DNA of 63,509 nucleotides, counting the filler, from Folioceros fuciformis (Eukaryota): the NCBI GenBank assembly GCA_049999805.1. It is 9 parts of 9 records of this genome, joined end to end, with 100 filler letters (N's around TTAATTAATTAA, not from the genome) between each part and the next. Parts side by side here need not be neighbours in the genome. Positions count along the whole stretch, not along the records: positions 27,590 to 36,431 come from JBNGIO010002898.1; 8 more parts are not named here. One strand, written 5' to 3'. The notes under the pieces were generated by a model. That model was not told the origin of the DNA, made no database searches, and saw only the letters and a list, made by a program, of their open reading frames with translations. This document shows positions 4,027-55,430 of this stretch, in pieces; position 1 is the first letter of the stretch, and every line of letters begins with the position of its first letter. The position numbers and the translations under genes were made by a program.

Positions 4027-4241
4027 TACAAAAACAGGAGAAGCAATCTCACTTAGGAAAAATGATCACATATATCAAACAAGCAAAACTCTTTTTGTCT
4101 TGTGTCATGTGCTATGGTGGTTAGGTATTTTGTAGTCATGTGTCTTTTCACATCTTGACTTTCTAACCCTAACTAAGCTTATTTAGCTTAACCTAGTTGT
4201 TGACTAGCTGACGCTAGACTATTCCTAGGCTTCACTTTGCA
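4027..4241 (-). mobile_element. Copia solo LTR (215 bp) inserted in the LINE
   Basis: Flanked by TSD CTCAA (4022-4026 and 4242-4246). Termini are ta(g)caaa...tttgca. The end is similar to the LTR at 43911-44110. Confidence 0.85.
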
Positions 4242-5333
4242 CTCAAGCCCTATCTTCTTCCAGCTTGGCCAAGGCGCATTATACCTCCGTTTTACGGGCC
4301 ACTTCCGCATCAGTGAAATCCCGACTCTCACAGCTCCTTTGGAGCCAGCCCAATTCCTCCCTCAAAAACATTCTTGCTGACGTTGATAGCTTGCTCGTTG
4401 CACCCCTCGCCTCCTCAGATACCTAGTCGCCTTAGTGTTAGCACGCATCAGTTTGATCGCCGCATTCTCTTCCCCCTGTTCCACTCCCTGCCAAAAGTTT
4501 TTGATGTCTTCAAAGACACCTTTGTCCTTCAATAAGGAGGTGTTCATCCGAAAATTTTGCAAATGTCTCCTAGGGCACTCCGAATCAGGAGCAAGTCTCA
4601 GGTGCAGACTAATAGGATGGTGGTCCAATAGAATCGTACTTGCAAGAATGCTGTACGACTGTACAAAGGCCAGCCACCTTGCAGGTAAATAATACCTGTC
4701 CAACCTGCGTGCTCCCAAGTTCTGTTGTTGATGGTTAGACCAGCTGAACATTAAGAACTGCGGTAGGCGATGCGCCAGGAGAGCCACCCACGGATCCTGC
4801 ACCGCCAAGATCGTATCTCTCAGCTCCTACCAAGACATAGGCACCACCCGAACATCACTTGGGCTATCCCCACGTATGTCCTCTCGATGGTCAACAAAGT
4901 TGAAATTGCCCGCCAGCGTCCACGGAATCTGCTCATCAAGCTGTTCACCCAGCTTACTCCAGAGGATACTCCTGTCCACGGCATCATTGGGCGCGTAAAT
5001 ATTACATACTCCAACTGGACCTTGAGGTGTTTGTAGCACCATCCACACAAACCTCCCATCCTCATCTTGTCCCAATTCCAGGATATTATGGGTTTGCTCT
5101 GGGTGAACTGTCATGGACACCCCTCCACGGGTTGCTGAAGCTCGTTGAGAAGAGATTTGTCAATCTCTTGTATCCTCCGCTCTAGCTGCTGCCCATTCAG
5201 TTCTCCCAGGAAGAAAGATTTTCTTCACTTTTTGGATGTGCTCCAAGGACAATTTATGCTCTTGCAAGCACACCACATCCCAAGTGACTTCCTCTTCTAG
5301 CAGCTTCTTAAGTCTTCTGTTGGATGAGGATTC

Positions 5334-5611
5334 GCTTACCCTTTAAATAATAATTGTATTAAATAATAAGTGTATTAGGGTTAGGCAAGTAGATATGAAT
5401 AGTTTCATTTATTTTTAGGGCACGTTGACGGTTGGTAGTTGGTAACTGCCGTGTCATGTGAAAGACACACGAACGTCGTTTCACCATCTAATTCTATTCT
5501 TAATTCTATCGCTTCCTCGCCTACATGTCTCTAGTGCGCGTACGCCTACTACAATCTACTTGCTGTTCATAAACGACATCTTCTACACTTCGACGCCGTC
5601 TTCGACCATCT
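5334..5611. mobile_element. LTR-like insertion splitting the start of the LINE endonuclease
   Basis: It separates SWNVRGLG from ESSSNRRLKKLL...VCLQEHK. It contains TTAGGGTTAGG and shares GCCGTGTCATGTGAA with ~47047. No clear TSD. Confidence 0.6.
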
Positions 5612-10142: not shown

Positions 10143-12794
10143 GGGACCTAACCTGGCATGCCACATAAGTGCAAGACGTTTGGAGTCTCGTGAAGCCATC
10201 CCTATAGAATGCTTGTGCGAGAAAAAATCCAGTCTGTACAGACCACTGTCGGGAATGCCCCTAAACACGCAGATGTTAGGGTATGACTTCTTGTGAAAGG
10301 TGCAGATGTCGTGCATAGCCTTCAATTCATAGATGCGGAGTCTCATAAAGAACATATAGCACATCTTCTAAAGTTAGGATGGAACAATCATGCAAGGTAA
10401 ATTTACAAATACCTTGCCCTTTGATTTGGAGACTTGTCTTGTTCTGTTCATCTCCCAGCAACACCTTGTCAACTATGTGACCAAGGTTTGACTTGAAAAA
10501 TTGATCCCTATTCTTGCAAATGTGGGAAGTTGCACCAAAATCAAGGTACCAGCTGCCTTCCTCAGGCCAAGAACGGGCAAGACAAACAGTAAGGATCTTT
10601 ACCACAGCTTTGGCATCACTTGACTGATTTTTCTCCTTGACTTCCATGTTTGTAGTGCTCTTTGAAGTGCGTTGGGGTTCCCGTGCCTTCTTCTTCTTGC
10701 ATTCTCAAGCCCAATGACACGGAATACCACACCAGTTAAAGTTTCCAGATCTCTTGGAAGACGAAGAAGATGTAGAATCAGGTTTACCCACAGACCTGTA
10801 TTTGCCTTTACCCTTATTGGGTCTGAAGCCTGGTGCTAATGCCTTTTCTGCTTTGTTCTTAGGAACACCAACGGAGATAAGACGAGTCTGCTCTTCTTGA
10901 TACAAGGCACCAACCACTTCTTCAATAGTGACTATGCTCGCAGAAGTGCCACCAGTAGACTTGATAGGCCCATTCTGGGTTGTAACAAAGGACTAGTATG
11001 ATGGAGGCAAGCTAGAAAGGGGCTTTGCAACTTAACTGCCTGAACTTCTGGTATCTTTTCTCTTGTAAGTGAAGCAATCTGAGCTCTCAAGTGTCTAAAT
11101 TTACTAGTGTAAGATGACACTCTTTCTCCTTCCTTCATCCGTAGTGAGTAATACTCTTGTTGTACTGAACACAATGTCATCATGTTTTGATTTTGATATG
11201 ACCTTTCTAGCTGAGCCCATATTGCAGAGGCTTCTGTAAGGAACTCTACATTCGGGACAAGATCAGCATCGAGCCCACTGAAAAGCAAGGCAATGGCAAT
11301 ACTATTGTGTAGATCCCGTTTGACAATGTCATCAGGTGTGGGTTTTGTAGCAGCTGCTGCATCTGGTTTACTGTAAGTTCCATCTATTATGGTCCATACA
11401 CCACGAGCCAACAAGGTAGCTTTCATGCGTACACGCCAAACTGGGTACCTGTTGCCATTAAAACGATCCTTCTCCTTGATTTCATATGTGAAGGTTGGTG
11501 ATGACATGGCAGGTACTACAAGCAGTGCAGGTTTTGGTTTGGCTTTCAATTTAGGTGTTACACTTAACTGCTAAAACTGCGATGCTAGAGCATCCAATAA
11601 TTATTCTTTTGACCCAGAGGACATACAGGTAATACAAGTGCTGCTAGGGCTATGGCTCCAATAGCAAAATGCATGCCTGAATGCATTTAGGGTAGGTTTG
11701 CACAATTAGGTTCTTTGCTAACTATGGCATATAGGGGATTTGACGGGAAGGGCTAGCCCGGGAGGATAAGGGATAAGGTGTATCCTGGCTTGCCCGTGCT
11801 AACCTCCCCATCAAAGTCTTCTATGTGCTTATGGTTAGTCAATGTAAAGACAAGTTTTATACATTTTTCTAACTCACGTCGTTTCAAACCTAACTGCCAC
11901 GAGTCATTGGAAAGTGAAGAGGCGCAAGACACCAAACAGCGTGCCTAGTTAGACCAATGCAATGAATCAAATTGCAATGGTGAAGAGGTGCCTGATCTGA
12001 AAATGACGGTTTGGATCTGGCAGTAACCTTGCACAGCCCTAGCACTTGCAAGCCCTCACGTCGTGGAAAAATTCATGCAAGTAAGCCATCGGTAGACGGC
12101 TGAATTGTTAAGTGTGTTCCCTTGTTCGATCTTGAAGCTGGCATTCCGTAATCCCCTTGTGTTGCTGCATCTAGGTACTGTAGTGTCCTGGACATTTCTA
12201 TCACAAGATCGTTTATTTTTTGCTTGGCTTCTATCACCCAAGGGGTTTGCTCAATATTTGTATGAAATTCTTCAATTCTCGCTTTCAATACTTCCTGTTT
12301 TGATAGCAACAAGGAAAAGGACTTCTCCACATGGACGTCTGTTGCAAAAATCTTGCTCATAATGCTTTGATTGTTGTAGTTTCTGTGTGATGATCCTTCT
12401 TGATCACGTTGCTGTGTTACAGGTCTTGGTTGAAATAAAGATTCCACATGAGGCAGCTCAGGGCGTTCGAAGTAAAGATGAGGGTTTTGTCCCCTCTATC
12501 TACAATGTGCTCGAAAAATGGAGTCAACTCTAAAGTTGTTGACTTCTCTTTGATGTGCCCTTCTCTGCCCTGCTCGATTGGATCTCCTATCCACAAATTG
12601 TCTTAGATAGTACTCAGGGTAGTTAGAAGCGTAGAGGTCTGGTACGTCTTCAGGAGAGCAAAAGCTTTGATTTGGAATTCTTCCAAAACATACAATGTTT
12701 CTCTCTCCACTCTTTGACGTCTGCTTCTGCGCGTGTTCCCCCTGTTACGCATCTTGCAAAAATGTGGACAATGGAGATTTAAGCTCTGATACCA
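10143..12794 (-). mobile_element. Ty1/copia 5' half (PBS, extra ORF, gag, zinc knuckle, protease)
   Basis: PBS TGGTATCAGAGC at 12783-12794. Gag KEKDRFNGNRYPVWRVRM (10932-11549), NWCGIPCHW, WYLDFGATSHIC. Confidence 0.92.
12073..12752 (-). pseudogene. Extra sense ORF ('ORF0') between PBS and gag, disrupted
   Basis: ORF pieces 12603-12752 and 12073-12447 show protein similarity to 27767-28354 (SKIF...E..FS.LLS..E). Confidence 0.6.
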
Positions 12795-15881: not shown

Positions 15882-16437
15882 NNNNNNNNNNNNNNNNNNN
15901 NNNNNNNNNNNNNNNNNNNNNNNNNNNNNNNNNNNNNNNNNNNNNNNNNNNNNNNNNNNNNNNNNNNNNNNNNNNNNNNNNCCAACCAGCATGCAAGAAA
16001 GGTCAGCCCTTGCGGATCTAGCCACCCAAATCTCAGCAATTTTGGGAGCCGCCACGTTCCCCTAGTGGGATGGGGAATCAAGGCCAAGGTGCATTTGCAC
16101 ACTGGATTAACCCTCTAACCCAGCAGCCTGCACACAAGGTCAAGGGAGCTCTCACCAAAAAAACCTCTCCCCTCAATAACAGGCCTGGCCTTGTTGATAA
16201 ATTGAATTGCGTGTATTACCACATATACACACAATTGCTAAAAGCAAAGTATATAATTTTTGGAACCTGATGTGTCTTATATACAATATATCAAGAGTCA
16301 CGACTGTTCATTAATCTCTCATAATCCTAACTAGCTAACATAAGCTACGTTTATATGTATGTAACCCTAACGAGGGGTTTTACTTCAAACACGCCCCCTT
16401 AAACGGAGCGCACTGTTAGCGTGGCGAAGTTGCAGCC

Positions 16438-16752
16438 ATGACGGGATTCTTCAGCCTGAGTCTCGCAGTCTGTGCAATCGTGATTGCTGTGTCCCTCCTG
16501 TATCAACACATAAGAGAACAACAGAGAAGGCGCAGAAAGAGAGCGGGCTGCACCACCTATCAGCTGCCTGTAAGCAGCTGGAGTGAAATAACGACGGACC
16601 AGACATGGCGTCTCGCAGGCTGGGAGTGTCGACTGTGGATTGCATTTTCGGCGAAGAGAGTGCCTGAAAGGCGCCAGCAACTGACTGAAGAAAAGGTGCT
16701 GGCAGAGCAACTGAAAAGAGCAGGCGCCTGTCCACTTCTGCCTGAAAAGTGA
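16438..16752 (+). CDS. Antisense ORF in the copia 3' region; 104-aa putative single-pass membrane protein
   Basis: Open ORF, ATG 47 nt from the LTR in context GCAGCCATG. Hydrophobic FFSLSLAVCAIVIAVSLLY is followed by the basic stretch RRRRKR. Confidence 0.55.
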   Translation: MTGFFSLSLAVCAIVIAVSLLYQHIREQQRRRRKRAGCTTYQLPVSSWSEITTDQTWRLAGWECRLWIAFSAKRVPERRQQLTEEKVLAEQLKRAGACPLLPEK

Positions 16753-16831: not shown

Positions 16832-19800
16832 TCAGGATTGAGACGGAGAACATGGTGCAACACCCATCGCCTCCATGAATTGATAATGTTTACTCGCGGG
16901 CAGGTACTTGGTCAACAAGTCTGCAGTGTTGTAATATGTTGAGACATGCTGAAGTCGCACCACCTTCTGTTCCACTTGTTGACGAATAAAATGATGCTGC
17001 ACCTCGATGTGCTTTGTTCGGGCATGGAAACGCGGGTTTGCTGTCATACTGATAGTGGAAACATTGTCGCAGTGGATAAGAGTGGGCTTCAGCTGTGGAA
17101 AACCAAGACCCTGCAGGAAGGCACGCTCCCAAATTGCTTCTTTGGCAGCTTCAGTTAGGGCTTTGTACTCTGCCTCAGTAGAGGACAGAGAAACGGAAGC
17201 CTGCTTCTTTGAGCTCCAGTGAACAACAGCATTTGAGAGAATGAAACAGTAGGCTGATATGCTTCGTCTGGCGTCAGGGTTTGTTGCCCAATCAGCATCG
17301 GCATAACCACACACGGTAGGTGTTGTATCTCGCCCCCTGAAGCATAAGCCGTGATTCATTGTGCCTTTAAGATAGCGCAAGATACGCTTGACGGCTGCCC
17401 AGTGAACTTGGCCAGGATTGTCAAGGAACTGGGAAACCGAGCTAACAGCGTATTGAATATCAGGGCGGGTCCAACAGCTGATGTAATTCAGACAGCCAAC
17501 AGCGTGACGATATGGAAACTGAGACATAGCCTGGCGCTCATTATCATCTTGTGGACAGTCATCAGCAGAAAGCTTGAGACCTGGAACACCAGGGGTGGAA
17601 ACGGGCTTGGCAGAATCAAGGTGAAAACGGCAGAGAGTTTCGGCAATATATTTGCTTTGGTGAAGCATGAGAGTCTGATCCTCCAAGTTGCGGACAAGTT
17701 GAACCCCAAGAACAAAGGTAAGAGGGCCGATGTCCTTCATGTCAAACTGTTGGTGCAGCATGCCCTTGACCCAGGCAAGTAACTCAGAGTTGTTTGATGC
17801 CAGAATAGCGTCATCAACGTACAAGGCCAGTATGACGAGATGACCTCCTTTGGTATATATATACACGTTGGCATCACCAGGGTTCTGCACGAAACCAATG
17901 GACTGCAAATACTTGTCGATGGTTTTGTACCATTCCCGGGCGGATTGCTTAAGACCGTAAATGGTCTTCTTTAAACGGCACACCCAGGTAGGATGGTCTG
18001 GAGCAATAAAACCTTCAGGTTGCTGCATATAGATGTCCTCGTCAAGCTCACCGTACAGAAAGGCGGTACACACGTCCATCTGTTGCAAGTCCCAAGCATT
18101 GGCAGCGGCGAGGGCAAGTATCATTCGGATGGACTGGGTTTTGACGACAGGACTGAAGGTTTCTTGAAAGTCAACACCGGGAATCTGAGTAAAACCCCGA
18201 GCCACAAGACGGGATTTGTATCTAGCAATCTCCCCTTTTTCATTCAGTTTATGCTTGAAAACCCACTTACAACTGACAGTTTTGCGGCCAACAGGCAGAG
18301 GACAGAGATCCCAGGTACCATTCTTGATAAGCGAGTCATACTCATCCTTGATGGATGGAATCCAGTGTGCTTTGTCTGGGCCAGTAACAGCTTCAGTGTA
18401 AGTGCGGGGCTCAGGCTTGAGAAAAGGAAACTCAGAGTTATTAGTCTTGAGAGACATGCCAGCCCTAGGACGCCGATAGTCCACAGACTGATACGGAGGC
18501 TCCTTCCAGTGAGCAGGGGGCACTCTCTCACGAGTGGGGTACCGGTGTTCAGGTGGAGGAGCAGGAAGGGGTACCTCATCATCATCAGTCACAGCAAGTT
18601 CTGGTAAAAGGTCACTGTCAGCTGAGTCGTCTGAGTGATGAGAAGCAACATCCTGCAAATCTGCTGACCCGGGAATTGACACGTCTCCTGCAGAAGCTGG
18701 ATTCGCTTGATTTGCTGCAACGGAGCCAGTGTCGGTGGCAGGAATAACGTCAGGGACACCGGCAGCAGCAGTAGGAGCAACGGGTTGTGCCACTGGAAAC
18801 TGCAAGAGACCAGGGTCAGGCAAAACAACTGGTTGGACCACTGAGCTAACATCAATAAAATCATCCTGGGGGAACTCAGACAGGTCCTCTTCTGCACTGG
18901 CATCTGCATCGGTAAGATTCGCTGGTACAGAAAGTGTTGATTCAAAATAAGGTTTGGCAGGACTGATGAGTTCTCGAAAGGTAACACTCCTAGCGAATTG
19001 TGCTGACTGGGTGAGTGAATCATACAACTTGTAAGCTTTCGCTTCTTCACCATACCCAACAAACAGCAGGGGTTTAGCCCGTGCATCTAACTTTCTTCGC
19101 TTTTCAGCAGGGATATATGCATAAGCAGGAGAGCCAAATACTCGAAGATGAAGTAAACTCGGCTTCCTTTGCCATATAACCTCATAAGGTGTTTTGCCAT
19201 CCACAGCACTTGTCAAGAGACGATTAAGGATGTAAGTCGCAGTCACCACTGCTTCTGCCCAGAATGCTTTGCTGAGACCTGACCATTCCAGCATGCTGCG
19301 CGTCATGCCTAACAGGGTCTGGTTGCGGCGCTCAGCAACGCCATTCTGCTGCTGGGTATAAGGGACTATGAGCTGACGGACAATCCCTCGGTCAAGAAGA
19401 AACTGGTTAAAGTTGCCATGTGTAAATTCTGTACCATTATCTGAACGCAAGCACTTCAGCTGGCGACCTGTTTGTTTCTGAACCATCTGCAGCCATTCCT
19501 GGAAGAAAGCAAAGGTGTCTGACTTCAAACGCATCGGGTAGGTCCATGAATACCTACTGAAGTCATCTGTGAGTGTAAGATAATACAAGGCACCACCTAG
19601 AGAAGGTATGTGAATCTTCCCAGAGATGTCTGCGTGCACGAGGTCCAGAATCTGAGAAGCTCTATATGCTGTCTGTTTGGGAAAGGGCACTTCCTTTTGC
19701 TTTGCTATCACACAAGCATCGCACAAAGGCAAGTCCTTGAAACATTTGGGCAGTGGTTCCCTGTAACAGGTTAGGTTGGACATCTTGATGAGCTTATCCC

Positions 19801-21217
19801 GATTGGCATGTCCTAGACGTGCGTGCCAGAGACTGGCTTGAGCAGCTTGGGTGGACAGAGTGACATTGGCAGTGTCCACAGGTATGGCTTTTAAATCAAG
19901 TTGATATAAATCGTGCACTAAGTGTCCTGTAGCAACTACCTTACCTCTCTCCCCTCTCTTCATAAGCTCACAGCGTGAAGAAGTGAAGAGCAGATCGAAA
20001 GTGCGTAAGGACATAAGTTGGCTAACAGAAAGCAGATGTTTAGCCATGCGGGGCACGTACAGGACGTTATCCAAGTGAAGGATGGAACCATCATGCAATA
20101 TAAAGCGACAGGACCCAGAGCCTTCAATCTGCAGACCTGTACGGGTAAGTTCATCACCCAAAAGCACTTTATCTGAAGTGGTAGATGACTGAAAATTGCT
20201 GATCAGGGACTTATCTTTGCAAATATGAGATGTAGCTCCTGAATCTAAATACCAGCACTGTGGGGAAGGATGTGCAGAAGACACAAGACAGACTGTCATG
20301 ACGACAGGTGGTTTACTTGTGATCAACTGAGAAAGCCGATCCTTGGCAGCCAAGTGTGCCTCAGCCTGTTTCAAAGGCTTCTCAGCTTTACGAGGCTCGC
20401 CAGATTTTTTCTTCCGACATTCTCTCTCCCAGTGGCCCTGTATACCACACCAGTTACAGGCGCCAGTACGTTTCACAGAAATGGTCTTCGAAGAACCTGC
20501 ACCTCCACTCGAGGTAGGTTTCCTCCGGTTTTGCTTTACTTGAGTCGAAAGGACCTTGTCTGTCCTGGTTCGTCCACCATGTAAAGTAGAAGTAGCCCTG
20601 CTTTGTTCTTCCTGTAGCAAGGCGCCAATAACATCAGCCAGGTTGATGTTGGTAGGCTGACCTGCGGCCCGAGCAGCATCAGCAGCGCGAACTGTGGCAC
20701 CGTAGCTGGAGACGAAAGTCTAATAGCTGGGGGGCAGACTCGTCAACAACTGACTAACTGCATCAAGCTCCGAGAATTGAGAACCCAAGTTGATGAGTTG
20801 GGCACGAAGGTGGCGAAAACGGATGACAAAAGGGGACACCTTTTCACCCTCCTTAAGACGCAGAGAGAAGAGCTCTCCTCGAACGGCACACATGGTAAGA
20901 ATATTTTTGGCTTCATAAGTCTGAGTCAGGAGAGTCCAAATCTCGTCAGCCTTGGTGAGGAAGGCAACATCTGCAAGCAGTGTCTCATCCAGTCCGCTAA
21001 TTAAGACGGCGCGAGCGACATAATTCAGGTTTGCCCATTTGTCCTTTTCCTCCTGTGTGGCAGATTGTGGAGGTTCCTTAAGCGTGCCACTAACAACTCC
21101 CCAAACGTGTCTCGCTTGCAGGGCAGCTGTCATGCGCACCTTCCAACCTTCGAATTTCATCCCATTAAATCGATCCCGCTCCTTGAACTCAACAGAGTAG
21201 GATGGCTGAGGAATCAC
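16832..21217 (-). CDS. Copia Gag-Pol polyprotein with one in-frame TAG at 20720-20722
   Basis: The 165-aa gag and 1262-aa ORFs share one frame. Motifs: CNWCGIQGHWEREC, WYLDSGA, WHARLGH, RSDNGTEF, NGVAERRN, YVDD, ADADWA, TKHIEV. Confidence 0.93.
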
Positions 21218-27489: not shown

Positions 27490-27766
27490 NNNNNNNNNNN
27501 NNNNNNNNNNNNNNNNNNNNNNNNNNNNNNNNNTTAATTAATTAANNNNNNNNNNNNNNNNNNNNNNNNNNNNNNNNNNNNNNNNNNNNCTAACACCACA
27601 TGAGTTTAGCTCATATAGAGCTCGATAACTCAACATTTTGCACACCCACTTGTGTGCCCCCAGAGTCTCTTGCATCCTAGACATTCCTCTTAATGTGGAT
27701 GTTTGAGACTCCGCCACATGGTATCAGAGCCTAATTCTAGATGCTGATCTTTTTGGGCCTGCAACC

Positions 27767-28354
27767 ATGCCTTGTAGGAGGGTAGTTGATTCATCATTGC
27801 CCCGGGAGTTGCAACATCAAACTCGCCAAGGAGTGGAGTGGATTCCACCACCTCAACAAGGTCCATGGAGCCAAGAATATCTTGATGAATATCGGACTCA
27901 ACTCCGTGTATTTTGGCACAAGCAGGCCCAAGAGCGAAGACAACATCGAATTCAGTTATGTGAGCAGGATTTTGAAGGTGATTTCTAAGCAGCAAAAATC
28001 TCACCATCTTGTGTAAAGTAGAACCTTTATTCACGTTCCAACAATTCAAAATTGAAGGAGAAATTGAGCGCCTTAAAGGATATTGACCAAGAGAGATGAG
28101 GAGATTTTTCTAGAGATTTAATTCAAAAATATTTGGAGAGAATTGAAATTATATTTTCTTAATTACTCTCTAGGCATGAGTCTTTTTTGGAGTCAATTTA
28201 TGATATGGAAGAACGTTTGCAGCAAAAAATGAGCAATATGAGTTATGACATTAATCACGGCATTAAGTGCATCACACAATTGTTGCACTCAATGCATGTA
28301 ATTCCGAATGAGATGGAAGATTGCGTAGGGCCTGCAAGCCCTGTTGCAACCTAA
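27767..28354 (+). pseudogene. Extra sense ORF ('ORF0') upstream of gag, disrupted
   Basis: ATG lies 37 nt after the PBS. Pieces EPLFTFQQFKI, SKIF and IEIIFS*LLSRHESFLESIYDMEERLQQK align with 12073-12752. Confidence 0.6.
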
Positions 28355-31300
28355 TTTGAGAAAATTTTATGAGGTGGTTGAGTGGCAGCAGTTAGGGTTC
28401 CTGATTTGCCACAGCTGTTGCGCGCTCTATCCACAAATTCAGGGCTGCCTTTCAATTCTCGTTGCCCTGAACAACAGTTATGTCAGTTATTTTCCCTTTT
28501 AGTTATTCCAAACAATAAATTTTTGAAATAGCCCTAATTAATCAGACGGTTTTCAGTTAGGGTTCATATCTCGTTTTTCCATTTCATCTGAAGTGCTTCT
28601 TACCTGTATGTCTTCTTCCGTAGACTAGCTTGTTGTAGACTCAGTCATGGCTACTCCTACCTCTCCTATTCAACCAGGAGCAGTGTCTCCAACCTTCATA
28701 GGAGATCTGAAAGAAAAAGACCGTTTCAATGGAACGCATTATGATATTTGGAAAGTCAGAATGAAGTCTACTTTAATTGCTCGCGGAGTTTGGAAAGTAG
28801 TGGATGGCACTTACCCTGATCTTGGGACTCCTTTCCATCCAAGTGTTCCTGGCGCTGTTGTTGCTCCAGGCCAGAAGATCAAGTGGGATACAGCAAATAG
28901 CATAGCTGTTGCCCTGATTATTGCTGGCCTTGATTCCGATTTAGTCCTTGAAATCGAATTCTTGGAGTCTTCCAAAGCTATATGGGACCAGTTAGCTTCT
29001 ACCTACCAAGTAGTGAATTTGATGACGATGTGTGCTATTAGAGGAAAATTTATAAACCTGAAGATGAGAGAGGGGGACTCGGTCTCTGCTCACGCGAGCA
29101 AATTCCAGCACTTGCGTGCTCAACTAGCCTCCTTTGGCACTACCTTCATTGAGATCGAAGTGGTGTTACAGTTTCTTCTCAGTCTTCCTCCTAGCTATCA
29201 GACCTTCGTCACCACTCAGAATGTTCCTATCCAGGTTCCTGGTCAACCTGTCCCTGTAGGACAATCCACACCAACACTCAGCGCTGTTATTGGAGCATTA
29301 TACCAGGAAGAACAAGTTCGTCACATGCGCGGACAAGGATAGCATAAAGGCAAGAATGACAAGGTATATTTTGCCTGGAGGGGCAGAGGCCGGGGTCGTG
29401 GAAGAAATCAGTCTCAACGACCATCCAACATTTGCGGCCAGAGCTCCTCATCAAATATACAAAAACGCCAAGGCAACTGCAACTGGTGTGGGCTGCCTGG
29501 TCATTGGGCTCGTAAATGTCGCAAAAAGAAAGCTGGCGAACCTCAACGGGTGGTACCTCGTCCAGCCACTGCGACTTCAACCACCCAACAAAATAAAGAT
29601 AAGCATACAGTGGATTTCTCAACACCAAATTCAGGCAAGCCAGTTGTAAAGATTCTAACTATCTGTCTTAATACTCTAGCGAGTGATGTTGACAGTTGGT
29701 ACCTGGACAGTGGGGCAACGCGCACATCTGTCGGGAAGAGTCTCTTTTCACTTGCCTCACGTTTTCTTGTGCTCTAGACAAAGTCTACCGTGGTGATGAG
29801 AGTAGTGCCACTAGTTTAAGTATCTTAGGATCTGGAACTTGTAAGTTCCTGTTACATGATGACTCTGAGTTAGTGCTTCCAGATGATTTATATGTCCCAA
29901 AGATGGCAAAAAATGTGATGTCCTTGAGTAAACTCATGAAAATGAAGAGTCTAGTACTTATTGTATCAGGAACTGTATGTTGCTTCTCTAGACGTAGTGC
30001 TCCTGAAGTTTGTATTTTTAAGGCCTTCCTGGAGTCAGAATTGTATCGCCTAGACATATCCTGCACACATCGAGAGCACGTTTGTTCAACAACTAAAGGC
30101 AGCCTAACAACTATCTAGATGGCCAGGCTTTGGCATGCACGCCTAGGCCATGCTAACAAGACTAAACTCTTGGCATCATCTAGACAGGATTGTTACAGGG
30201 AGCCGTTACCTTCATGTTTCAAGGAACTCCCCACATGCAAGATTTGCGTTTTAACAAAGCAACGAGAAGCGTCATTTCCTCGCATACCTGCTCACAGAAT
30301 GATAGCAGTCCTGGATTTAGTACATTCAGACATTTCTGGACGACTGCAAGTCCCATCCTTAGGTGGAGTAGAATATTACCTTACCTTCACAGACGATTTC
30401 AATTGATATACCTTGACATATCATATGCAAAGGAAAAGTGATACATTTCCTCTTTTTCAAGAGTGGCTACTTCTTGTTCAAAGGTAGACTGGCCGTCTTC
30501 TCAAGGTTTTTAGATCTGACAATGGTGGCAAATTTGTCAGTAATTTATTCAAACAATTTTTGGAAGACAGAGGCATAATACATCAACTTATTGTTCCCTA
30601 CACACAGCAACAAAATGGCATGGCGGAGAGAAAGAACCAAACCTTAATGGGCATGACCAGATCCATGCTGTTGTGGTATGGACTTTCTTCTCCATACTGG
30701 GCAGAAGATGTGGTCACAGCAACCTATATTTTGAATAGACTTACCACTAAGGCTCTGCCCAATAAGACCCCATCTGAATTCTTCTAGAATCGGAAGCCAA
30801 GTATTTCACATCTTCGTGTTTTTGGCTCCAAAGCCTTTGAATATGTGCCTGCAGAGAAACGGCGAAAGTTAGATGATAGGGCTCTTCCCCTACTCTTTGT
30901 CGGTTACAGTGAAGTAACCAAAGCTTATAAACTAATTAATCCTAAAACTTTGCAGCCCACAATTGCCGGGAGTGTTACTTTTATTGAGATACTAAATCCA
31001 CCAGTTTTGGACAATGGAAGCTCACCTGGACATCCTACTGATCTTCTGTATGCCGAGAACTTTGTTGAATATCCAGTTGATGCAGATGGTGATGATGGTT
31101 CTGTCAATCCAGATGCCCTTCCTCCACTTGCAGATCAACAGCCTCTCCCCGCCAATGCACATCCAGATCATGACCTAGATCCAACTTTAGAAGAACGAGT
31201 CATCCCTGAACAACTTGTAGATGATCCTGAGTTACCTGCCCAGAATCACGACGTAGGTTTAGGAGACTCAAGTGACCAAAGTTCCATAGCTTCTTCTCCT

Positions 31301-33228
31301 GACTCTGAAGAAACATCTGATCTTACTCCTGTTCCCACACAACTAGTTCGTCGTTTAGAACGTATTAGGAACCCCAGATTAGAAACTCCTTTCAAGTCTT
31401 TGGATTTTTGAAAGTTCGTGTGCGTTTGCTTTCCTTTAGTCCAAGCTGTAGTACCATCCATCCCTCCAGAACCTGTCACGCTCACTGAGGCATTCACTGG
31501 TCTTGACAAATCAAAATGGAAGATGGTAGTGGATGACAAATTCAAAAGTCTTATTCAGAATGGTACCTGGCAGCTTGTTCCTTGTCCAGCAGGCCGCAGA
31601 CCCATCACTTGCAAGTGGGTCTTCAAACATAAGCTTAATGCTGCTGGAGAGATAGCCAGGTACAAGGCACGTTTGTGTGCCCGTGGATTTACACAAGTCC
31701 CAGGGTTAGACTTCCAAGAAACCTTTTCTCTAGTTGTCTGTTCCCAATCTATTCACCTCATGTTGGCTCTTGTGGCTGAACGTGACCTAGAGTTAGAGCA
31801 GATGGATGTGAAGACAGCCTTCTTGCATGGTATTCTAGAAGAAGAGCTGTACATGGAACAGCCAGAAGGCTATGAGGATCCTGCACATCTGAATTGGGTC
31901 TATAAGCTCATGAAGTGCATCTATGGACTGAAGCAAAGTGCAGAACGCTGGAATGCCAGGTTAGACACTTGCCTGAAATCTCTTGGCCTTAAGCAGAGTC
32001 CCGCAGATCCCTCGGTGTACATCTATGATGATGGAAAAGCCTATGTCTTGCTGGCTATATATGTTGATGACGCTATTTTTGCTTCCAACGACAAACCACT
32101 ATTAGCAAGAGTTCAAGACATGCTTTGCAAGGAGTTTGAAATGACAGATGTTGGAGAATTAAAATTTTGCCTAGGAATTCAAGTCCTTCAAGTTCAAGAA
32201 CAAGGCATGATCATTATCCATTAGCATAAATACATTTCTGAGATTTACAGCGATTCCATATGGCCACTGCACATCCTGCCGCCACTCCTGCTGCTGTTGG
32301 AACACGACTCAGCAAGAATGACTGCCCGACCTCAGCATTTGACAAGGAAGACATGAAAGATGTACCTTACAGGCATGCCGTTGGCAGCCTACTTTTTGTT
32401 AGCAACTGGACGAGGCCGGATATTACATATGCTGTCAACACCGCTTCTCAGTCCCTGGAATGCCTTGGACACAATCACTGGACAGCAATTAAACGCATTT
32501 TTAGATATCTGAAAGGTACTCCTCACCTTGGTTTGTGCTACAAGCGAACTGGTTTGGTTCCTACCTTACAGGGTTTTGCAGACGCTGACTGGGCCTTGGG
32601 CCTCAGATTCAGATTCCCGTAGGAGCCTCTCTGCCTATGTTTTCTTACTTTCATCTGCTGCTATAAGCTGGTCCTGCAAGAAACAAACAAGCATAGCTCA
32701 GTCTAGTACAGAAGCAAAGTATAAATGCTTGACAGAATCAGCAAAAGAGGTAGAGTGGGAAAAAGTGTTTCTTCAGTCTGTCCATGCTAAACAGTCTAAG
32801 CCAACCCTCCTCTTCTGTGACAATGCATCAGCCCTAGAACTTGTTGAGCGTCCTCGTTTCCATGCTCGAACCAAACACATAGAGATACAGCACCACTATA
32901 TTAGGGATGTAAAATCACGAGGAGTCGTTAGCCCCACCTATGTTAATACAGAAGCCAACATAGCTGATATACTGACAAAAGCTCTTCCTAGACACAAACA
33001 TGAGGCACATGTCAAAGGTCTAGGTCTCATCGATTTTTCTCCCCACCTTACACAGTGATGCAGTAGCCCTGTTCACTTTACAACAGTATTACTGGCTTTA
33101 CAATTCTGCACGTTGTTAGTGAGAGTATGTTCCCTTACATTTGTCCAAGTGGATCAAGCGTCACAGTTATATCCAGTCGTGGGCACGGTCATGAGCAAAG
33201 GAACCAAAATCCTACCTGGCCAAACCCT

Positions 33229-33744
33229 TTACCTCCCTTCCTTCTTCCTCCTGATTGCGGCTTGAGCCTTACGCACGTCATAACCGTCTTTTGAGAGCTC
33301 AGCCAGAACCTCTTCAAACTCCTCAACTGTTAGTTCGCGACCACCTTGTCCTGTGTTAAGCCCAACAGAAATTGTGTTTGCAAGTTGGGTTGCGCTTAGC
33401 TTGATAGCCTCTAGCTGCTTCTCCAGTCTTGCGCACTTGTCATCTAAACCCAAGAGGTCCTGAATCAGCTCCTTGTCCCTGGTTGTTGGCCACTTCTTGT
33501 TGGAACTTGCCGAGGCAACTAAGACAACAGAGATGGAGCTCCCTTCAACATCTGAGTCATTCGCTCCTCCGGCCACCTGAAGTCTAAGCTGAGACGTATG
33601 CCCACAGATTCAATTTCTAACCATATTGAAGACTGGTGGGAGCAACAAAGGTGCTACAGTGATCAAGAAAATGACCAGCCAGAGGAAGCAACTCACCAAG
33701 AAGGTCATGGGAACAATCTCTTTAGACATCGAATCCATCTCCAT
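33229..33744 (-). pseudogene. Antisense TM plus coiled-coil ORF (171 codons, one in-frame TGA at 33610-33612)
   Basis: MEMDSMSKEIVPMTFLVSCFLWLVIFLITVAPLLL...N*ICGHTSQLRLQVAGG continues in frame into the listed 115-aa ORF. Confidence 0.72.
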
Positions 33745-34141
33745 GCGATGCTCGTGAGAGTGCTACGGATTCAACACGTGGAGCCGGTGTTAACTTTCGC
33801 GTGCAGCCTTGAATGAAGCTGTTGAGATTTTTCGTGAGTCTAGAAGCGGCACTTGCCTCAGGGTTTAGGGTTTTTTCACCGTTTCCTATTCAGTTTCGTA
33901 TCTAAGTTTCTAACATAATTAACCCGTTCAAGGTTAAGTGGGTGTGTTAGATAAATAACTTCTTAGGGTTAAATAGATACAATTAAAGCTACTTTTGTTA
34001 GGGCGCATACCCTAAATGTACATATATGAATTTTTGTGTTTATTGAGTTAGTTGAGTATTTTGCACACCCACTTGTGTGCCCTTAGAGTCTCTTGTATCC
34101 TAGACATTCCTCTTAATGTGGATGTTTGAGACTCCGCCACA

Positions 34142-36431
34142 AAAATTACTCATCAAACTTCTTTTGTTGCATATGTGAGATGTAGCCCCAGAATCCAAGT
34201 ACCAAGCATCATGTGTCTTGGGAGGCTTGGATGTGGACAAGCAAGTCGTCATCACAACTGGCGATTTGCCTTGTGTTGTCTTGTCCTTGGAAATCGTGTC
34301 GGCCTCAGCCCCTCTATGAGTCTTCTCGGCCTTCTTAGGTTCTCCATTTTTCTTTTTATGATACGCCCGCTCCCAATGGCCGGGAGAGCCGCACCAATTG
34401 CAGGCTCCAACCTCTTGGTTTGACCTGGCTTGGTGTTTCCAGCCTTAGATGTGCTAGGTGTAGAGAAGTTTCTACCCTTGTGTTGTGAACGAGGTTTAAA
34501 GGTAAAAAGGACTTTATCTGTTTTGGTACGCCCAAAATGGGAATGAGAACCACTACGTGATTGCTCTTCTTGGAACAAGGCTCCTACAACATGGGTGAAG
34601 CTAATCTACACTGTTTGTCCTACAGCTGCGGCTCTGCCTGCATCTCTAAGTGAGGCTCTGTAGCTAGAGACAAAAGGCTGATAGCTTGAAGGAAGACTTG
34701 TAAGGAGTTGGGCTACAACATCTAAGTACGACATAGTATACCTTATGAAATCAGCTGTGATCTAAGGTGCCTAAACTTGCCCACAAAAACAGCTGCCTTT
34801 TCATTGTCACGCATACGAAGAGAGAAAAGCTCACTCCTTACAGCACATAAGGTTAGTATATTTTTCACATCATATGTCTGCGAAAGCTGGTTCCATATAT
34901 CCTCGACTTTAGCCAAATAGGCAACATCTGGAACTAGTACCTCATCAAGACCACTTATTAGGAGGGCTCGAGCCACATTATTGGCGTTGTCCCATCTGTC
35001 CTTATCGAATTGATTTGCGGTAGCTCCAGGTTGTTTGAAGTGTCCGCTCACAACGCCCCATACGTGCCTAGCATCAAGTGCTGCTTGCATGCGCACGCTC
35101 CACATGGGGTATTTGTTTCCATTGAACCTATCCCGCTCCTTGAACTCAACTGTATACGATGGCTGATAAATTAGTGTGTGTGCCTGTATAGGAAAATTAA
35201 AGCCTGCTCCCGATCTTGGCAAGGCAAGTGGAGGAGGCCCGTAAGCAGGTCCTGGCCCAGGCAAGGGATTTCCATATCCAGCTCCAAGGTTCGGCAACGG
35301 GTTGGAGAATCCAGCTCCTGTCATAGGCAAAGGATTCCCGGGACCAGCTCCATAGCTTGGCAGAGGATTGGAAAATCCCGCTCCTGGCGCACTGGAAAAA
35401 CCTGTTCCAGGCATAAAGGAGGGGATAGTGGGAAACGGCGTTGTGGAGAAGATTCCAGATGGAGAAGTAGTTGCCGTAATTGTGGTCGAAGCCGTATTCG
35501 CAGGGTTTGAAGATGTGGCGGCGAGAGTTGATGCTGCAGGCGTGCCTGAGGAGGCCGCTGCTGGCCCACCAAACAGAACCCCAGCCAGGCTGTGGCTAGG
35601 GATGCCACTGGAGCCTGGGGAGCCAGCCATGGAGTCTAGGCAGCGAGGGTATGGCAACCTCCACTCCGAGAAAACGGCAACCTAACTACAGGTTCAGGCG
35701 GCGGGCATGCAAAGGGCAAAGAGCGCTAAGGGTTGAGGGAGCTCATGCGTGGATCTTGCCCTCGATCTGCGAGGCCTTGTGCTTGGCTGTAGGGAGCTGC
35801 TTGTGTAGGGGAGGCCAAGAGAACTGCTGATGTCGTGGGACCCGAGCCACTGAAGGAAAACGCAGTCTTGCCCTTCCCTGGCTAGGCCTGTTAGCGACGA
35901 GGCTAAAGTAGCTTCTCGTTCCAAGCTCTCAATTTCTGTTGCTCCGAGGCATTTTCAAAATGCCGTTGTCTGCATAGTTTATCTAGCGATGCAGCAGAAA
36001 ACTAGGTTGATGATCTAGCATCATTAGGAACAATTTTTCAGAGGGCATGCTAGACTAAATCATGTGATGCAGGCAGTGGATGTTTTTAGAACACACTAGC
36101 CAGCATCCATATTTGGTAGTGGGTGCTGGGCGCCGTGTTTGTAAAACATTTCAGCTTCAACATCATTACCATAAAGTAAATTTTCAGACTAAAAATATAT
36201 ATAAGGAGTATAATATCTAAACAAGAATGCAAGAGCATTTATTACATGCCATACCCCTATCCTGTTGCTCTAAGAACAACGTATTGACAGCGCTGATACC
36301 ATGTTAATATTCTAGAGATGCTAGAAGATGCAGATAAGAGCAAACTTGTCAAAGAAAAAACAAGATAATTATTTTAAGTAATCAAAAGAGTGTCTTATAT
36401 ACATAAGTTGTTTAACTCTAAGTGACCTTTC
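34142..36431 (-). mobile_element. Copia 5' part (LTR 36302-36431, PBS, gag with Pro/Gly-rich N-terminal extension, protease start)
   Basis: PBS TGGTATCAGCGC at 36290-36301. FKERDRFNGNKYPMWSVRM; WYLDSGATSHIC is cut at 34142 by the previous element. Confidence 0.9.
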
Positions 36432-36531: not shown

Positions 36532-38820
36532 GTCTTCACATGGAGGGGGAACCCCCTCAGTGTATTAACCATATCAAGTGAGTGACCCTGGGCTCTACCC
36601 ACAAGTATTTGGGACTTCCTTTTCAAGAGGGGGAGGAGAATGGGGAGATTGGGAAGTATGTCTGCCTCAGGTTCATTCGCAAAGCGGCTAGTTTACAATT
36701 GCTGGAGCTCAACTTGGCAGGTAGGCTTGTGGTGATTAACCATATCCTTACAGCCTCTTTATGGTACTTTTTGTTTATGTGGGCGCCTTCTAAGACAGAG
36801 GTGAAGCGCTTACAACAGGTGCTGACCTCTTTCTTGTGGAAACGTTCAGGGGATGGTTTGGCTGGGTGTTCTAAAGTGGCTTGGCAGCATATTATTCAAG
36901 CGCGTGGAATGGGGGGCCTAGGGGTGGTGGACCCAGTTGCCAAGATGAAAGTTTTGCATGCTCAATGGGTTGTCAGGGCAGCGGATCCAACATACTACCC
37001 TTGGAAGAGTATGCTAACACAGTACTTGGACGGCACCCAAGCTGTCCCCAGGGGTAGGAGGTCTATTGACAACATTCTAGCTGACAAACCGCTGCTGGAT
37101 ACTACAGGATGCTCCCCGCTCTTTAAGTCCATCTGGAATAGTTACTTGGAGGTCAAACATTATCTTATCCCGGGCACCTTCTCTCATTTGGATGATGTTC
37201 TGGGTATTCCTTTGCAGGGCTTCTCAAGGTTATGGGTACGGGAGTTCAGGCCAAAGGTTTATCGGTCACAAATTTTTGGGCTGGTTTGTCACAAAGGCGT
37301 TATCCAACTTGGGCATTTATGAAATAGATCAGAGTCCCGTTGGAAGGAGGTGGAAGAGGTCAGAAGGGAGTTTGGCGTAGGGGCCCGGCACGTCAAACTC
37401 ATATTCTCGTGGTTGCACGAGGGGCTAGAGGAAAAGGTACATCATATCCTAAAGCAACAACCTACCATAGGCGAGGAAGGGTGGTTTGCTTACTCCATGG
37501 ATAGTAGGGGAGTCGACTCGGAGGAGGAGGATGAACAGGACGAAGCATTAGAGCTAGACAGGGTGATTTGGCTTGCGAGAGCTGACGGCAAAGAGACGTT
37601 GAAGTCGTTCAAGGTCTTGTCGCCTAACGGCTCTCTGGAAGTGCAAGGTAGGGACGACGGTGAAGGCCGAGGGGGGGAACTGCGGGCTATTATTGTAATC
37701 TGTAGGTCCGTTCGGGCAGGGTGGTGGTACACGTCTGGCAAACGCCCAACTGGGCCACGAACCTATGATAAAGCAAAGGTTCTGTGCTGGTTCCGATTGG
37801 GTGAAAACTAGGCTCTGACCTTCAAACTAGATCTCTACAGGTGGCTTAAGCGCCCGGGGTGCAAGAAAGCTACTTCTCGATCTTTCTTCAACTTCCCAAC
37901 GGCAGACCTCTTCCTTTGGTTGGTGCGAGCGCAGAAAATCAAACAAAGACAACCAATGGCTCCCCGCCTGAGGTTAACTGGACGGCGCCAAAAGGAAGCC
38001 ATCAAGCTCCTATGGCACTCCGCAGGAGTCCCTCCCAAGGTCAGGTTTACAGTTTGGTGTTTCTTTCAAGCATGTTTGTCTAATGCAGATCGTTGGGATG
38101 GGCTTCTTGCTGCAACGGGGGAGGACATGTGTCGATTGTGCACCGATGGTGCCCCAAACAAGAGTCAACACATGTTCTTTCACTACTGTTTTGCCCAAGA
38201 GATCTGGGGCGAGGTGAACAGGTGGCTTCGATTGATTTTTCCTAGAGCTAACCTCAAGATCACGAGTCAATCAGCCTTATTTGGGCTGGACGCAGCCTCG
38301 GGCAAACCTCTCATGAAGACCCAATGGTGGGGCTTACTGTGGTCCTCTTGTCTTTTCTATCTCTGGGTCAATTGGTCCGTGGTGGTTCACGGAGGACGGG
38401 AGTGAGCTTCAGTGAAAGCTCTGTTATGGCGCATATGGGAGCATTTATTGATTGCAGCAGAAGCCTTGGAGCAATCAAGCCGGAAGCAATTTAAGCGGAA
38501 AGACTGGAGGATGGCCGGCTTCCTTTCGCCTGGGAAAGATACGGGTTGGAATCACTCGTGCCCCTAGGGACGGTGAGCCTTTAGGGTCTTTGAGAGACTT
38601 TGAAGGGTGTGTATCAGTGTTTTAGGCAGGCGGCGGGTACCATAGTGTAGGGGAGCACTCTCCGTGCGCCTTGTCTTGAGCTTTGGTCTTAAGGCTAGTC
38701 CTCCCCCCTCTCTTTCGGTGCTCGATATATGTCCATTCGTTAGCAGGGGGTTCCCATTGTATTGTAAGTGGGAGGAGTCTTCCACTCATAATTAGAATTA
38801 TTTGCTTCACGAGAAAAAAA
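36532..38820 (+). mobile_element. L1-type LINE 3' part (ORF2 C-terminus with zf-RVT-like motif, 3' UTR, poly-A)
   Basis: KYLGLP, KVAW, GGLGV, CRLC...HMFFHYCFAQEIW; A-tail ending at 38820. Same family as 1357-6790. Confidence 0.92.
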
Positions 38821-41800
38821 CAAGCCAGGTTTCGAGAACCTTTTTTGGTGACCAAATTGCACAGGGGGAACTACACCACCGTCGAGGTAGCCATGAGGTC
38901 CCTGCGATTACAGGCTAAGCAAGCACACCATAAGCAACATACAGCCCTGCTAAAGAGGACGGCAAGGCAGATTGTGACCATCCTACGTGCAGGTAACTCT
39001 TGGGCTTGGAGGTGCACAATTCAAGTTGCGCTCCACAACCTTTGTGCAGACTGTGTGATGTGGGATGTGTACCCTGCAAGAAGCAATCAAGTAGGAGCAG
39101 GGATGTTTGTCAACATGGAAACAACTCAAAGTTGTCACTCCAATTTCATTACTAAAGGGTTTCTTGAGCTGATGCTAGGGCGGCCAGTGGGTGTGGAAGG
39201 TGGATTGAGAGGAGAGGAAGGTGTGGATGGTGGCTTGAGAGGAGAGGAAGGGGAGGCGGTTCTTCACAACAGGGATGTGGCATCAAGTTTGGTTTTGTGA
39301 GTTGACCACATGCAGGGTTGTGGAGTGCTTCCTCCTTATTAGCAAGGGCCCTTCCTCATTCACCCCAGCAGCCTTCACAGCTATCGCTCTCTTGCCCTCC
39401 CTAATCTCCTGCTTTTTTGTTTCTTCCAGTGTATGTTTTCTCATTAAATGTCTTCCAATCCACCTGCACTCCCACAATTTTTTCCAATGTTATCCCTAGG
39501 GCCATGAGTCTAGGAATCCTCTTCTCACCAAGACTTGGCCGCAACTCATAAACACCAAAAACAAAACCATCAATCTCGCACCACTCCACATCACTTAGTG
39601 CGTCTATCACTTTAAACCCATGCCCCTCCTTGAAAGTTGGAGGCCAAATAGCTTCTCCACCTCCTTGGTGCCCAGCTTGTCTTGAAGGGCATTCAAGAGG
39701 GCTAGGTCCTTGACATGAACCCCTATCCCCCAAATGCTACCATCATCAGCCCTCCATGTCCAAGTGTCCATCAATTTTCCTGCACTTGCCCAAATTCTGT
39801 CCACTAAACCCTACTAGGCATCTGCTCTTCGAGCCTTCCCACGTTGGCTTCTTCTCTGAGCCAACCTTGCAGCGACTGCAACAGACCGTTTAAAATCTCG
39901 CTTGGGAAGGGCCTCTAGTGAGCTCACCTATGTACCATGGTCGTCATTGGATCCACATGAACCTCCAGATCCATCATCTTGGAAATCCTCCAAGTCGCCA
40001 GGCTCCTTGCTCACTTGCCCGGCCTCCTCCCTGGCCCCCTTACTTCTTCCCCTGCATCCAACAGACATAAACATGAGATTGGTGAAAAGCAAGGAGAATT
40101 CCTCTCTTACCTTCCCTAAGCAAGTAGAATTTCAAGTAAAAGAATGGAAGGACGATGCATGTGGCATCCTGTGCTCTGCAGGCTGAAACAGGTGACCCCA
40201 AGTTTGTCTTAAGAATACCTTGCAGGCAAGGCATCTTTGCCTGCAAGGCACGTGCAACAATCCGACACGTTCAGATCCAGGTAACCACTAAGCAACCATG
40301 GTCAATTTTGTGGGTGCATAGGCTGATGTCAGTGCTTTCTTCCACACCACCTGTAGTGCTATGCAATCTGATTTAGCCATGCCAGTAGATATGAAGACTA
40401 ATCTCATGTGCAGTTCACCATGTCATTTTTATGTGTTGCATTTGCCACTTCCAATGGTCATACGCTGATAAGTCACTGGACTAAAAGTGCACCTAGTCAC
40501 AACATCTGGTCTTTTAGCCCCATGTGTGGAAATTGTCACTATGCTTGTGAACTTGGGCTACTGCATGCCATCCATGATGCACTTCAAGTGGTTATGTGAA
40601 TTTTCTTTCCACTAGATGTACCACCTTCATACTCTTGATGAACACTGTGACACCCTCGGTACTAACCACGCACTTAGCCTAACATGAAGGATATGTTGTG
40701 TGCCTTTTCTTCATGTGAAGGATCTGCAGTCTATGAAGGAGCCTCAAATCGAAAGAGCAAGTTGGCAACCATTCTTGGTGACCACCTGATCCGCATTACG
40801 GGAGAGTTGGCAAAAATCAACATACAACTTGACAAGTTGGAAGCTGCGGCAAAGGAGATCAAGCAAGCCTTAACTAGTGAAAGGCAACGACTAGGGGAGG
40901 TGGCATTTGACATTCGGAAATGTTCCGAAGAGATGGAAACCACTCCAAAGAGTCGAGAGGAATCTGAAACCTTTGAGGACATTCAAGGGCACACATCTCT
41001 ACTAAACCATCTATCAGGGCAGGTCCAAGCATTGTACACTCTGGAGAAAAGCTTGTACCAGCGAGTGGAGGAGCTGTCGAAGGAGGGCATAGTAGCTTAG
41101 CATGAGCTCAATCAACATGGTTGCATTGTTCATAGGAAGGAACGGACATTCAACATTCTAAAGAGTCTATCTGTAGTACTAGATGTAGAAGTTGAGGGAA
41201 GGCCTGGGCGCTGCAATTTCCTTCCGGCACCCCTGGAGCAAAGGACAAGACCAAGAATCCCTATGAATGCTTGTCCTATTTCTGCAAGGTATTTTCTACG
41301 TAATTGCTCCCTTCATACAATTTGGTCATTAAATTTTTCCAAGCAGAGGTTTCACAAATTGTCCTTGTTACTTTTGCAAGTGGTTTGCTTGCAATGAGTA
41401 GGTCATGTTGTAATGTGAGTATATGTACCATGAGTTTTGTTTACATGCTCATTTGTAGACCAGCAAAACTTGTATGCTCAAGGATTGCAGCATGGAGGTT
41501 GATACAAGATGGTATGTGCCAAAAGATTGGGACCTACTTGTAGGGACTATCCCCTAGGCATGGTGTAGTGAGTTGTTGAAGGAATGGCAAGCTGAGTACC
41601 AAGAGCTTGTGAAAGACCTCGATGCGTTGCTCACTTGGATAGAGCAGATTCACCGAAGCCACAGACAAGACATATCGCCAGCCACTTCTCCATGTGTGCT
41701 TATTTTTTCTCCTTACAAGTCACCATCTCAAGCTATTTCCTCATCCACTGGAGGCTAATACAATGTCATTTGTACTTTGATGCAGAATGCTATGACAAAT

Positions 41801-55320: not shown

Positions 55321-55430
55321 TTTGGGCAGGTTCTACATTGGAGTGGCGAAAACTTAGATAGTTAGGGCTGTGCATGGAGGTGACATATGTGTCCACAGCA
55401 GATAGCACAGTGAACGCAGAGGTCTAAAGG

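Follow-up and report, generated by a model that had tools for sequence, protein, structure and literature searches.

Several gypsy LTR retrotransposons carry an extra ORF in forward orientation at their 5' end, among them Ogre, Tekay (including the ORF0 of Retrosat2) and TatII. In the Drosophila gypsy elements MDG1/412, two ORFs of 70-110 aa, sORF1 and sORF2, lie in the sense orientation upstream of gag and are under purifying selection, the first encoding a nuclear and the second a membrane protein, according to the accessible part of the report (10.1101/2025.03.14.642691). An antisense ORF (aORF, aORF-3R) is located between pol and the 3' LTR of the gypsy elements Retand, Grande and RIRE2, and the review that covers 3' sense and antisense ORFs gives gypsy examples (PMC7264820). 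Plant copia elements are usually viewed as structurally uniform, with extra ORFs essentially limited to SIRE. The REXdb survey counted extra ORFs only from 250 codons and, in its accessible part, gives a 3' forward ORF for 74% of SIRE, extra ORFs in an apparent 5'-forward column for 5% of Bianca elements and for 4% of Ikeros elements, and antisense ORFs in copia that reach only 1%, in SIRE (PMC6317226). The accessible text on bean copia reports only 3' ORFs (PMC4093653), and full-text searches, outside which most subscription papers lie, showed no copia lineage with conserved 5' sense and 3' antisense ORFs.

Here we describe copia elements of Folioceros fuciformis that have both, an ORF0 between the PBS and gag and an antisense ORF behind pol, with ORF0 seen so far in one genome. 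Unlike Ogre, Tekay and TatII, these are Ty1/copia elements in which ORF0 is shorter than 250 codons and is without a plant-mobile or SMC Pfam match. Whereas MDG1/412 has two short ORFs before gag, here a single soluble ORF of about 200 aa lies upstream and an ORF with a hydrophobic start lies antisense downstream of pol; MDG1/412 is the closest functional precedent, the likeness seen being one of layout. The Retand/Grande/RIRE2 aORF occupies the same site but in gypsy elements, while the copia ORF described here is 104-171 aa long and often has a hydrophobic N-terminus, and the env-like ORF of SIRE, also behind pol, is sense where this one is antisense. The 5' ORFs of Bianca and Ikeros are of at least 250 codons and rare in the accessible REXdb data, in contrast to an ORF0-type frame in 44 of 53 leader clusters here.

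Two copia elements and their lineage

The window, by which we mean the whole stretch of 63,509 nt that was analysed, strings together unrelated contigs with N spacers between them. It comes from an 87-Mb assembly of 7,240 contigs, which was the genome searched, and holds two elements, A and B, with the following features.

Element A
27635-27718, + strand: 84-nt remnant (3' end) of the 5' LTR, sharing 96% identity with 34058-34141
27719-27730, + strand: PBS of tRNA-iMet type, after the LTR-terminal CA
27767-28354, + strand: ORF0, group I, decayed, 195 codons with 4 internal stops
28355-28646, + strand: ORF0-gag spacer, 292 nt, 3 AUGs, folding z of -2.9 against shuffles
28393-28399, no strand given: telo-box, a motif of the plant telomere repeat, 254 nt ahead of the gag AUG
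28558-28564, no strand given: another telo-box, 89 nt ahead of the gag AUG
28647-33058, + strand: gag-pol, decayed by stops and frameshifts, in ORF pieces; Pfam Retrotran_gag_2, E 5e-26
33229-33744, - strand: antisense accessory ORF in the interval from pol to the 3' LTR, one internal stop
33866-33872, no strand given: telo-box, about 120 nt upstream from where the antisense ORF starts
33945-34141, + strand: 3' LTR, about 197 bp, with a purine-rich tract in front

Element B
12783-12794, - strand: PBS motif
12073-12752, - strand: ORF0, group II, decayed, with a frameshift near the start and stops
10932-11507, - strand: gag (5' part)

In element A the ORF0 ATG at 27767 is at PBS + 48, the stop occupies 28352-28354 and the gag ATG is at 28647; the internal stops of ORF0 are at codons 74, 85, 111 and 132, and the remainder of the 5' LTR has been replaced by unrelated sequence close to the contig start. 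The segment 27767-28354 is a dead copy of a real gene. The leader of element B is about 1.29 kb long (PBS at 12794, - strand). Just before gag in element A (28608-28646) and in loci L002-L007 there is an upstream in-frame ATG followed by a stop common to the subfamily members seen, and a 6-codon uORF in these copies ends 18 nt before the gag AUG. A same-clade Gag at 34743-35681 (- strand) has a long repetitive N-terminal extension rich in Pro, Gly and Ser. Elsewhere the window contains a host gene fragment with a PGG domain (53765-54703, + strand; Pfam E 1.5e-14) and 54-57-nt tandem repeats, tandem arrays with 37-nt and 50-nt units (62653-63096 and 55380-55629), LINE fragments (1358-6800, with an inverted copy at 36532-38820) and a 140-codon frame of coiled-coil-like composition (40678-41100, + strand). 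The PGG-domain gene, the telo-boxes of plant type and the tRNA-iMet PBS suggest a land-plant genome.

The elements are Ty1/copia LTR retrotransposons, with the domain order gag-PR-INT-RT-RH, a copia-type Gag and RVT_2. In two relatives (L098 and L100), Pfam gives Retrotran_gag_2, Pol_BBD, rve (scores of 54 and 41) and RVT_2 in that order. An element is about 6.6 kb long with LTRs of 175-200 bp, and the distance from the PBS to the end of the 3' LTR is 6.4 kb both in element A and in L108, the latter having an LTR pair of about 175 bp (93% identical, TG..CA) and a 5-bp target-site duplication with one mismatch. CA precedes the PBS in 40 of the 53 leader clusters, and the PBS is of the full tRNA-Met 3'-end type. 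On contig C354 of the assembly, positions 631-990 hold 11 PBS motifs, ten of them spaced by 33 nt, in a tandem array at an LTR/PBS junction.

Several named lineages do not accommodate these elements, while Ikeros, Gymco, Tork, Ale, Ivana and Angela, which are told apart in RT/RH/INT trees with REXdb references, are candidates; searches gave no named relative. SIRE is about 10 kb, compared with about 6.6 kb here, and the conserved 3' ORF here is antisense (24 of 25 loci). Bianca, Bryco, Osser and TAR have half-tRNA or self-priming PBSs and not the full tRNA-Met 3'-end type, the PBS types of copia lineages being those given in the accessible part of REXdb, with half-tRNA-Ile for Bianca (PMC6317226). 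Lyco elements are 4.7-4.9 kb, as against 6.4 kb from the PBS to the end of the 3' LTR. The gypsy order, aRH and tRNA-Arg PBS of Ogre/Tat elements with ORF1 are not found, INT preceding RT here.

ORF0 in the clade

The initial annotation had proposed a conserved sense ORF between the PBS and gag from three peptide matches between elements A and B. That conclusion was correct and the reasons for it partly wrong, because peptides that were compared are off-frame and profiles nonetheless align. The first two matches (EPLFTFQQF.. and SKIF in A, ETLYVLEEF.. in B) fall outside the homologous frame, with 4 identities, and the third (IEIIFS../VEKSFS..) is in frame. The similarity does not reflect neutral DNA identity, as DNA similarity between A and B is nil beyond 20-nt words. 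Aligned directly, the two ORF0 proteins do not match significantly (149 of 1,000 shuffles reach the same score), and the protein-level link that had been claimed is real only indirectly, the A-group profile (9 sequences) matching the B-group profile (12 sequences) with 95.7% probability and E 9e-9 over 175 columns. The two elements belong to different ORF0 groups, which profile comparison alone joins. The ORF0 of element B matches an open 186-aa ORF in L041 (47.7% over 153 aa, E 6e-40). A DNA search of the assembly found, alongside near copies, two relatives at about 71% local identity (L011 and L012) with uninterrupted ORF0s of 210 and 218 aa that start 40 nt after the PBS, and the window ORF0 is 34-41% identical to these intact relatives.

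The spread of ORF0 was assessed from a Gag search of the assembly, in which 150 of the 2,269 candidates were scored as matches. The 130 loci analysed, some redundant and mostly from the Gag match list, included 83 with a PBS within 1.8 kb, and 81 leaders of 650-1,500 nt formed 53 DNA clusters. An uninterrupted ORF no shorter than 130 aa, with its ATG 25-75 nt past the PBS, is present in 23 of these 53 clusters, compared with 8 of 8,100 shuffled leaders, so that the frame is indeed open in many subfamilies. A recognisable ORF0-type frame is found in 44 clusters, of which 35 belong to groups I-VI, six to an L140 type that starts further downstream and two to an L192 type, the last being L102; seven of the 53 have no ORF0-type match, and two doubtful clusters were left out of the 44. 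ORF0 starts about 38-49 nt past the PBS in most groups. Groups I-IV and VI are linked by BLASTP only at E ≤ 0.05, and at that threshold no link to other groups was found for group V and L102. Six fetched elements combine a PBS with a gag-pol frame that runs without interruption for 1,479 codons or more (L094, L096, L098, L099, L100 and L102), and all six have an uninterrupted ORF0 (185-209 aa).

In a quick Gag tree of 67 rows, elements with long leaders group together in a single clade (SH-aLRT 93), from which copia elements with short leaders (such as L236 and L245) are separate, and the ORF0 groups mostly track Gag subclades with at least one mismatch, L098. This element shares its ORF0 group with L094, L096 and L123 and sits on a different Gag branch, and the mismatch suggests a swap of the leader module by recombination. 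One subclade (L092, L114, L127, L133 and L140) has an ORF0-type frame of 100-140 aa with an MP.RR start located 370-505 nt after the PBS, the start elsewhere being about 45 nt after it. The ORF0s of L030, L031 and L032 are near-identical copies with a frame shift in the same long T run, the run lengths of which differ, and slippage, sequencing error or a shared lesion may be responsible. ORF0 was also considered as a general feature of tRNA-Met elements and this was rejected, with an ORF0-library match at 3 of 27 evaluable PBS sites among the first 29 loci out of 1,328 sites.

ORF0 is under purifying selection in its own frame in the relatives. With translation-blind DNA alignments and kappa of 3, dN/dS (omega) was 0.25-0.64 in all 12 pairs of intact relatives, which share members and were picked for open frames, and the 95% interval was below 1 in 11 of the 12; the other two frames of the same pairs gave 0.89-2.27. 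Indels come in multiples of three in 19 of 23 cases in ORF0 compared with 30 of 115 in the spacer, a test that is partly circular because intact frames were the criterion for picking the pairs. Omega among members of the window's own subfamily is 0.67-0.91, and the intervals include 1, as expected of dead copies; selection is therefore seen in the family and not in the window copy. A purine occupies position -3 relative to the start codon in 17 of 18 ORF0s, and ORF0 changes faster than Gag (for example, 63% versus 98% identity between L094 and L096). ORF0 is almost certainly protein-coding.

The 19 full-length ORF0 proteins are of 177-236 aa, mostly with an MPR start, and in all 19 the first 100 residues carry a net charge of +5 to +13. 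The highest 19-aa hydropathy is 0.33-1.09 across the same set, which leaves no transmembrane segment, and the reading of ORF0 as a membrane protein (Env-like or sORF2/FAST-like) was rejected. Two AlphaFold2 models, covering both groups and built on shallow alignments (mean pLDDT 69 and 65.5, pTM about 0.33), predict a disordered N-terminus, short helices and one C-terminal helix of 65-79 residues. A three-copy model of the L176 protein scored 0.63 versus 0.00 for the best control, with a heptad interface at residues 129-197, at least 47% of contacts in common between runs and pLDDT of at least 51; three copies are outside the calibration of this complex score. In that calibration, 21 of 30 solved homodimers and 0 of 23 monomers attained the mark, as did 17 of 29 from eukaryotes and 1 of 7 without an older relative. 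ORF0 is thus predicted to form an oligomer through a C-terminal coiled coil, which we consider probable, with a model that supports it and stops short of showing it. A nucleic-acid-binding accessory role, suggested by the architecture, is to us as probable as its opposite.

Database searches with ORF0 were largely silent. No homologue was found with P0002 as the query, no match with the group-I profile among 1.84 billion representatives, none in a metagenome scan with one ORF0, none in Pfam at curated cut-offs, none in Foldseek searches of BFVD and the PDB at E ≤ 0.001 and none for P0002 in the ESM Atlas. The group-II profile found one 134-aa protein (P0003), 75% to L183 over 57 aa. This silence says little because the same databases miss the Gag of this clade: a Gag query found nothing among the candidates scored in the protein search, and a metagenome scan with Gag returned relatives at 23-26% only, without a PBS match. 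The ESM Atlas matched L176 to Borna virus P at 0.80, a level reached by a third of shuffled proteins, and this resemblance is only a lead.

The antisense ORF behind pol

The antisense ORF is a second conserved accessory gene of the clade. It was counted at 25 loci including that of the window, with 29 matches in all (relatives catalogued as L195-L218), and among the matches listed the relatives lie antisense to RNase H and 121-543 nt away from it at 24 of 25 loci. The proteins are 104-171 aa long and share a WPT-type motif. That of element A has a hydrophobic N-terminus and a conserved helical-looking domain, and a hydrophobic N-terminal segment is present in many others, with hydropathy of 2.1-2.5 in L098, L099, L108 and the element at 16420-16752. 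Omega is 0.23-0.72 in nine pairs, with an interval below 1 in seven, and a Pfam match is absent. Other ORF0 groups have different antisense ORFs at the same site (L094, L100, L101). The ORF at 16420-16752 (+ strand) encodes 104 aa, with a hydrophobic start and then an arginine run, and sits behind the nearly intact pol (a 1,295-codon frame, 16832-20719, - strand) of another clade member. A telo-box is located upstream of the antisense ORF at 18 of 25 loci, and 12 tails hold 11 telo-boxes compared with 1.2 expected.

Access to Gag-Pol and the role of ORF0

The suggestion in the initial annotation that Gag is reached by splicing or reinitiation is not supported, with splice donors no better than in shuffles and 6-27 AUGs upstream of gag. 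These AUGs precede the gag AUG in all 18 elements, and simple leaky scanning is ruled out because of them. We lean slightly toward an account in which the selected ORF0 would be the first cistron of the LTR-driven RNA, and likely translated, while another RNA, begun at an internal telo-box promoter within the spacer, would supply Gag-Pol. The ORF0 product, basic, likely nucleic-acid-binding and predicted to oligomerize through its C-terminal coiled coil, would then be a trans-acting helper on the RNA or DNA of the element, in export, as a packaging chaperone or in anti-silencing.

The internal promoter is favoured because of telo-box enrichment together with several precedents. The spacers hold 18 telo-boxes, in 14 of 22 elements, compared with 0.95 expected, and there is one in 13.6 kb of ORF0 and none in gag. 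They are present in 33 of the 53 leader clusters in both orientations (split 13/28) and in 22 of 46 LTR-side stretches. Those upstream of the antisense ORF bear on a promoter role because that ORF needs its own promoter. Angiosperm telo-boxes are mostly within 50 nt of the transcription start (PMC3022908, in its accessible part), the Grande antisense ORF (gene23) has its own promoter (PMC7264820), and the accessible text on BARE separates translated from reverse-transcribed RNA (PMC3735527). BARE1 is hence a copia precedent for separate RNA pools, but it has two LTR TATA boxes and no upstream ORF, whereas here an internal promoter is what we infer. Against such a promoter, 8 of 22 spacers have no telo-box, including those of the intact group-I copies L106 and L107, and 1-7 AUGs remain between telo-box and gag in 13 of 14 elements. 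The 14 telo-box spacers have no TATA match, and site-II motifs, which were counted without a null, show no clear peak. Telo-boxes may do no more than label non-coding sequence throughout the element, for example as chromatin-factor sites. In addition, out-of-frame AUGs are halved in the ORF0s of groups II-VI (43 versus 83 expected) and not in gag or pol, which counts against the promoter because it leaves this depletion unexplained. An expression check with one run gave only short pieces of less than 90% on element A and none on L105. For the internal promoter taken by itself, our confidence falls a little below even.

The depletion would fit a route in which ORF0 and Gag-Pol share one full-length RNA. 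Ribosomes would scan leakily past the AUG-poor front of ORF0 and then gain non-canonical access by a shunt, an IRES or protein-assisted reinitiation across a structured, uORF-bearing spacer, as pararetroviruses or MDG1/412 do. Over its first two thirds, ORF0 in groups II-VI has AUG densities of 4.0 and 4.6 per kb compared with about 21 per kb in gag and pol, the depletion was replicated in six further ORF0s (13 versus 24.8), the spacer uORFs are short (median about 8 codons), leader folding exceeds that of shuffles (mean z of -1.1 to -2.0 versus -0.6 in gag), and MDG1/412 RNAs are described, in the accessible part of the report, as unspliced full-length transcripts that carry two sORFs ahead of gag (10.1101/2025.03.14.642691). 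However, group I, to which element A belongs, has no AUG depletion (69 versus 53), the AUGs upstream of gag still number 6-27, the folding signal extends beyond the spacer, and the AUG signal may be an avoidance of AU because out-of-frame TAA is equally depleted. We regard this same-RNA route as rather unlikely.

Less probable still, and in our view a clear outsider, is that Gag-Pol, or an ORF0-Gag fusion, is made from a spliced RNA from which most of the leader is removed. YAG is mildly raised near gag, 12 of 22 elements having one no more than 13 nt from the gag AUG compared with a background of 36%, and group-I spacers have U-rich TTAG/GG sites, but one telo-like motif in three has the orientation that gives no acceptor. 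A conserved donor was sought in the leaders and rejected: the best donors of 20 leaders score below shuffles (7.2 versus 8.05 bits, by an approximate matrix), words resembling donors show no enrichment (8 versus 11.9) and no donor position is conserved. The reading of ORF0 as a neutral by-product, open by chance in a non-coding leader kept for RNA structure or packaging, can draw on the omega near 1 in the window's own subfamily, on databases empty of homologues except for one unnamed protein and on the structured leader RNA, but it is largely refuted, and hardly credible to us, given that omega is well below 1 in the ORF0 frame only, that the MPR-type start is fixed, that 23 of 53 clusters have the frame open although they share no DNA identity, and that the groups are homologous at the protein level.

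With ORF0 in front of its core genes and the antisense ORF behind them, this clade is likely a copia lineage with retrovirus-style accessory proteins. A bolder extension, which we think improbable as a whole, is that of an undescribed 'complex' copia with three genes and three promoters, laid out in the manner of complex retroviruses and comprising an oligomeric basic ORF0 protein, a Gag-Pol from an internal telo-box promoter and an antisense membrane-anchored protein, in which ORF0 would export, chaperone or shield from silencing the RNA of the element and the membrane-anchored protein would tether particles or move them between cells. Both accessory genes are below the 250-codon cut-off, and similar genes may be systematically missed because the reference survey counts from that length. 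The clade offers dozens of diverged natural alleles for probing the function of retrotransposon accessory proteins, and it would provide a clean test of how Gag is produced behind a long selected ORF and many AUGs.
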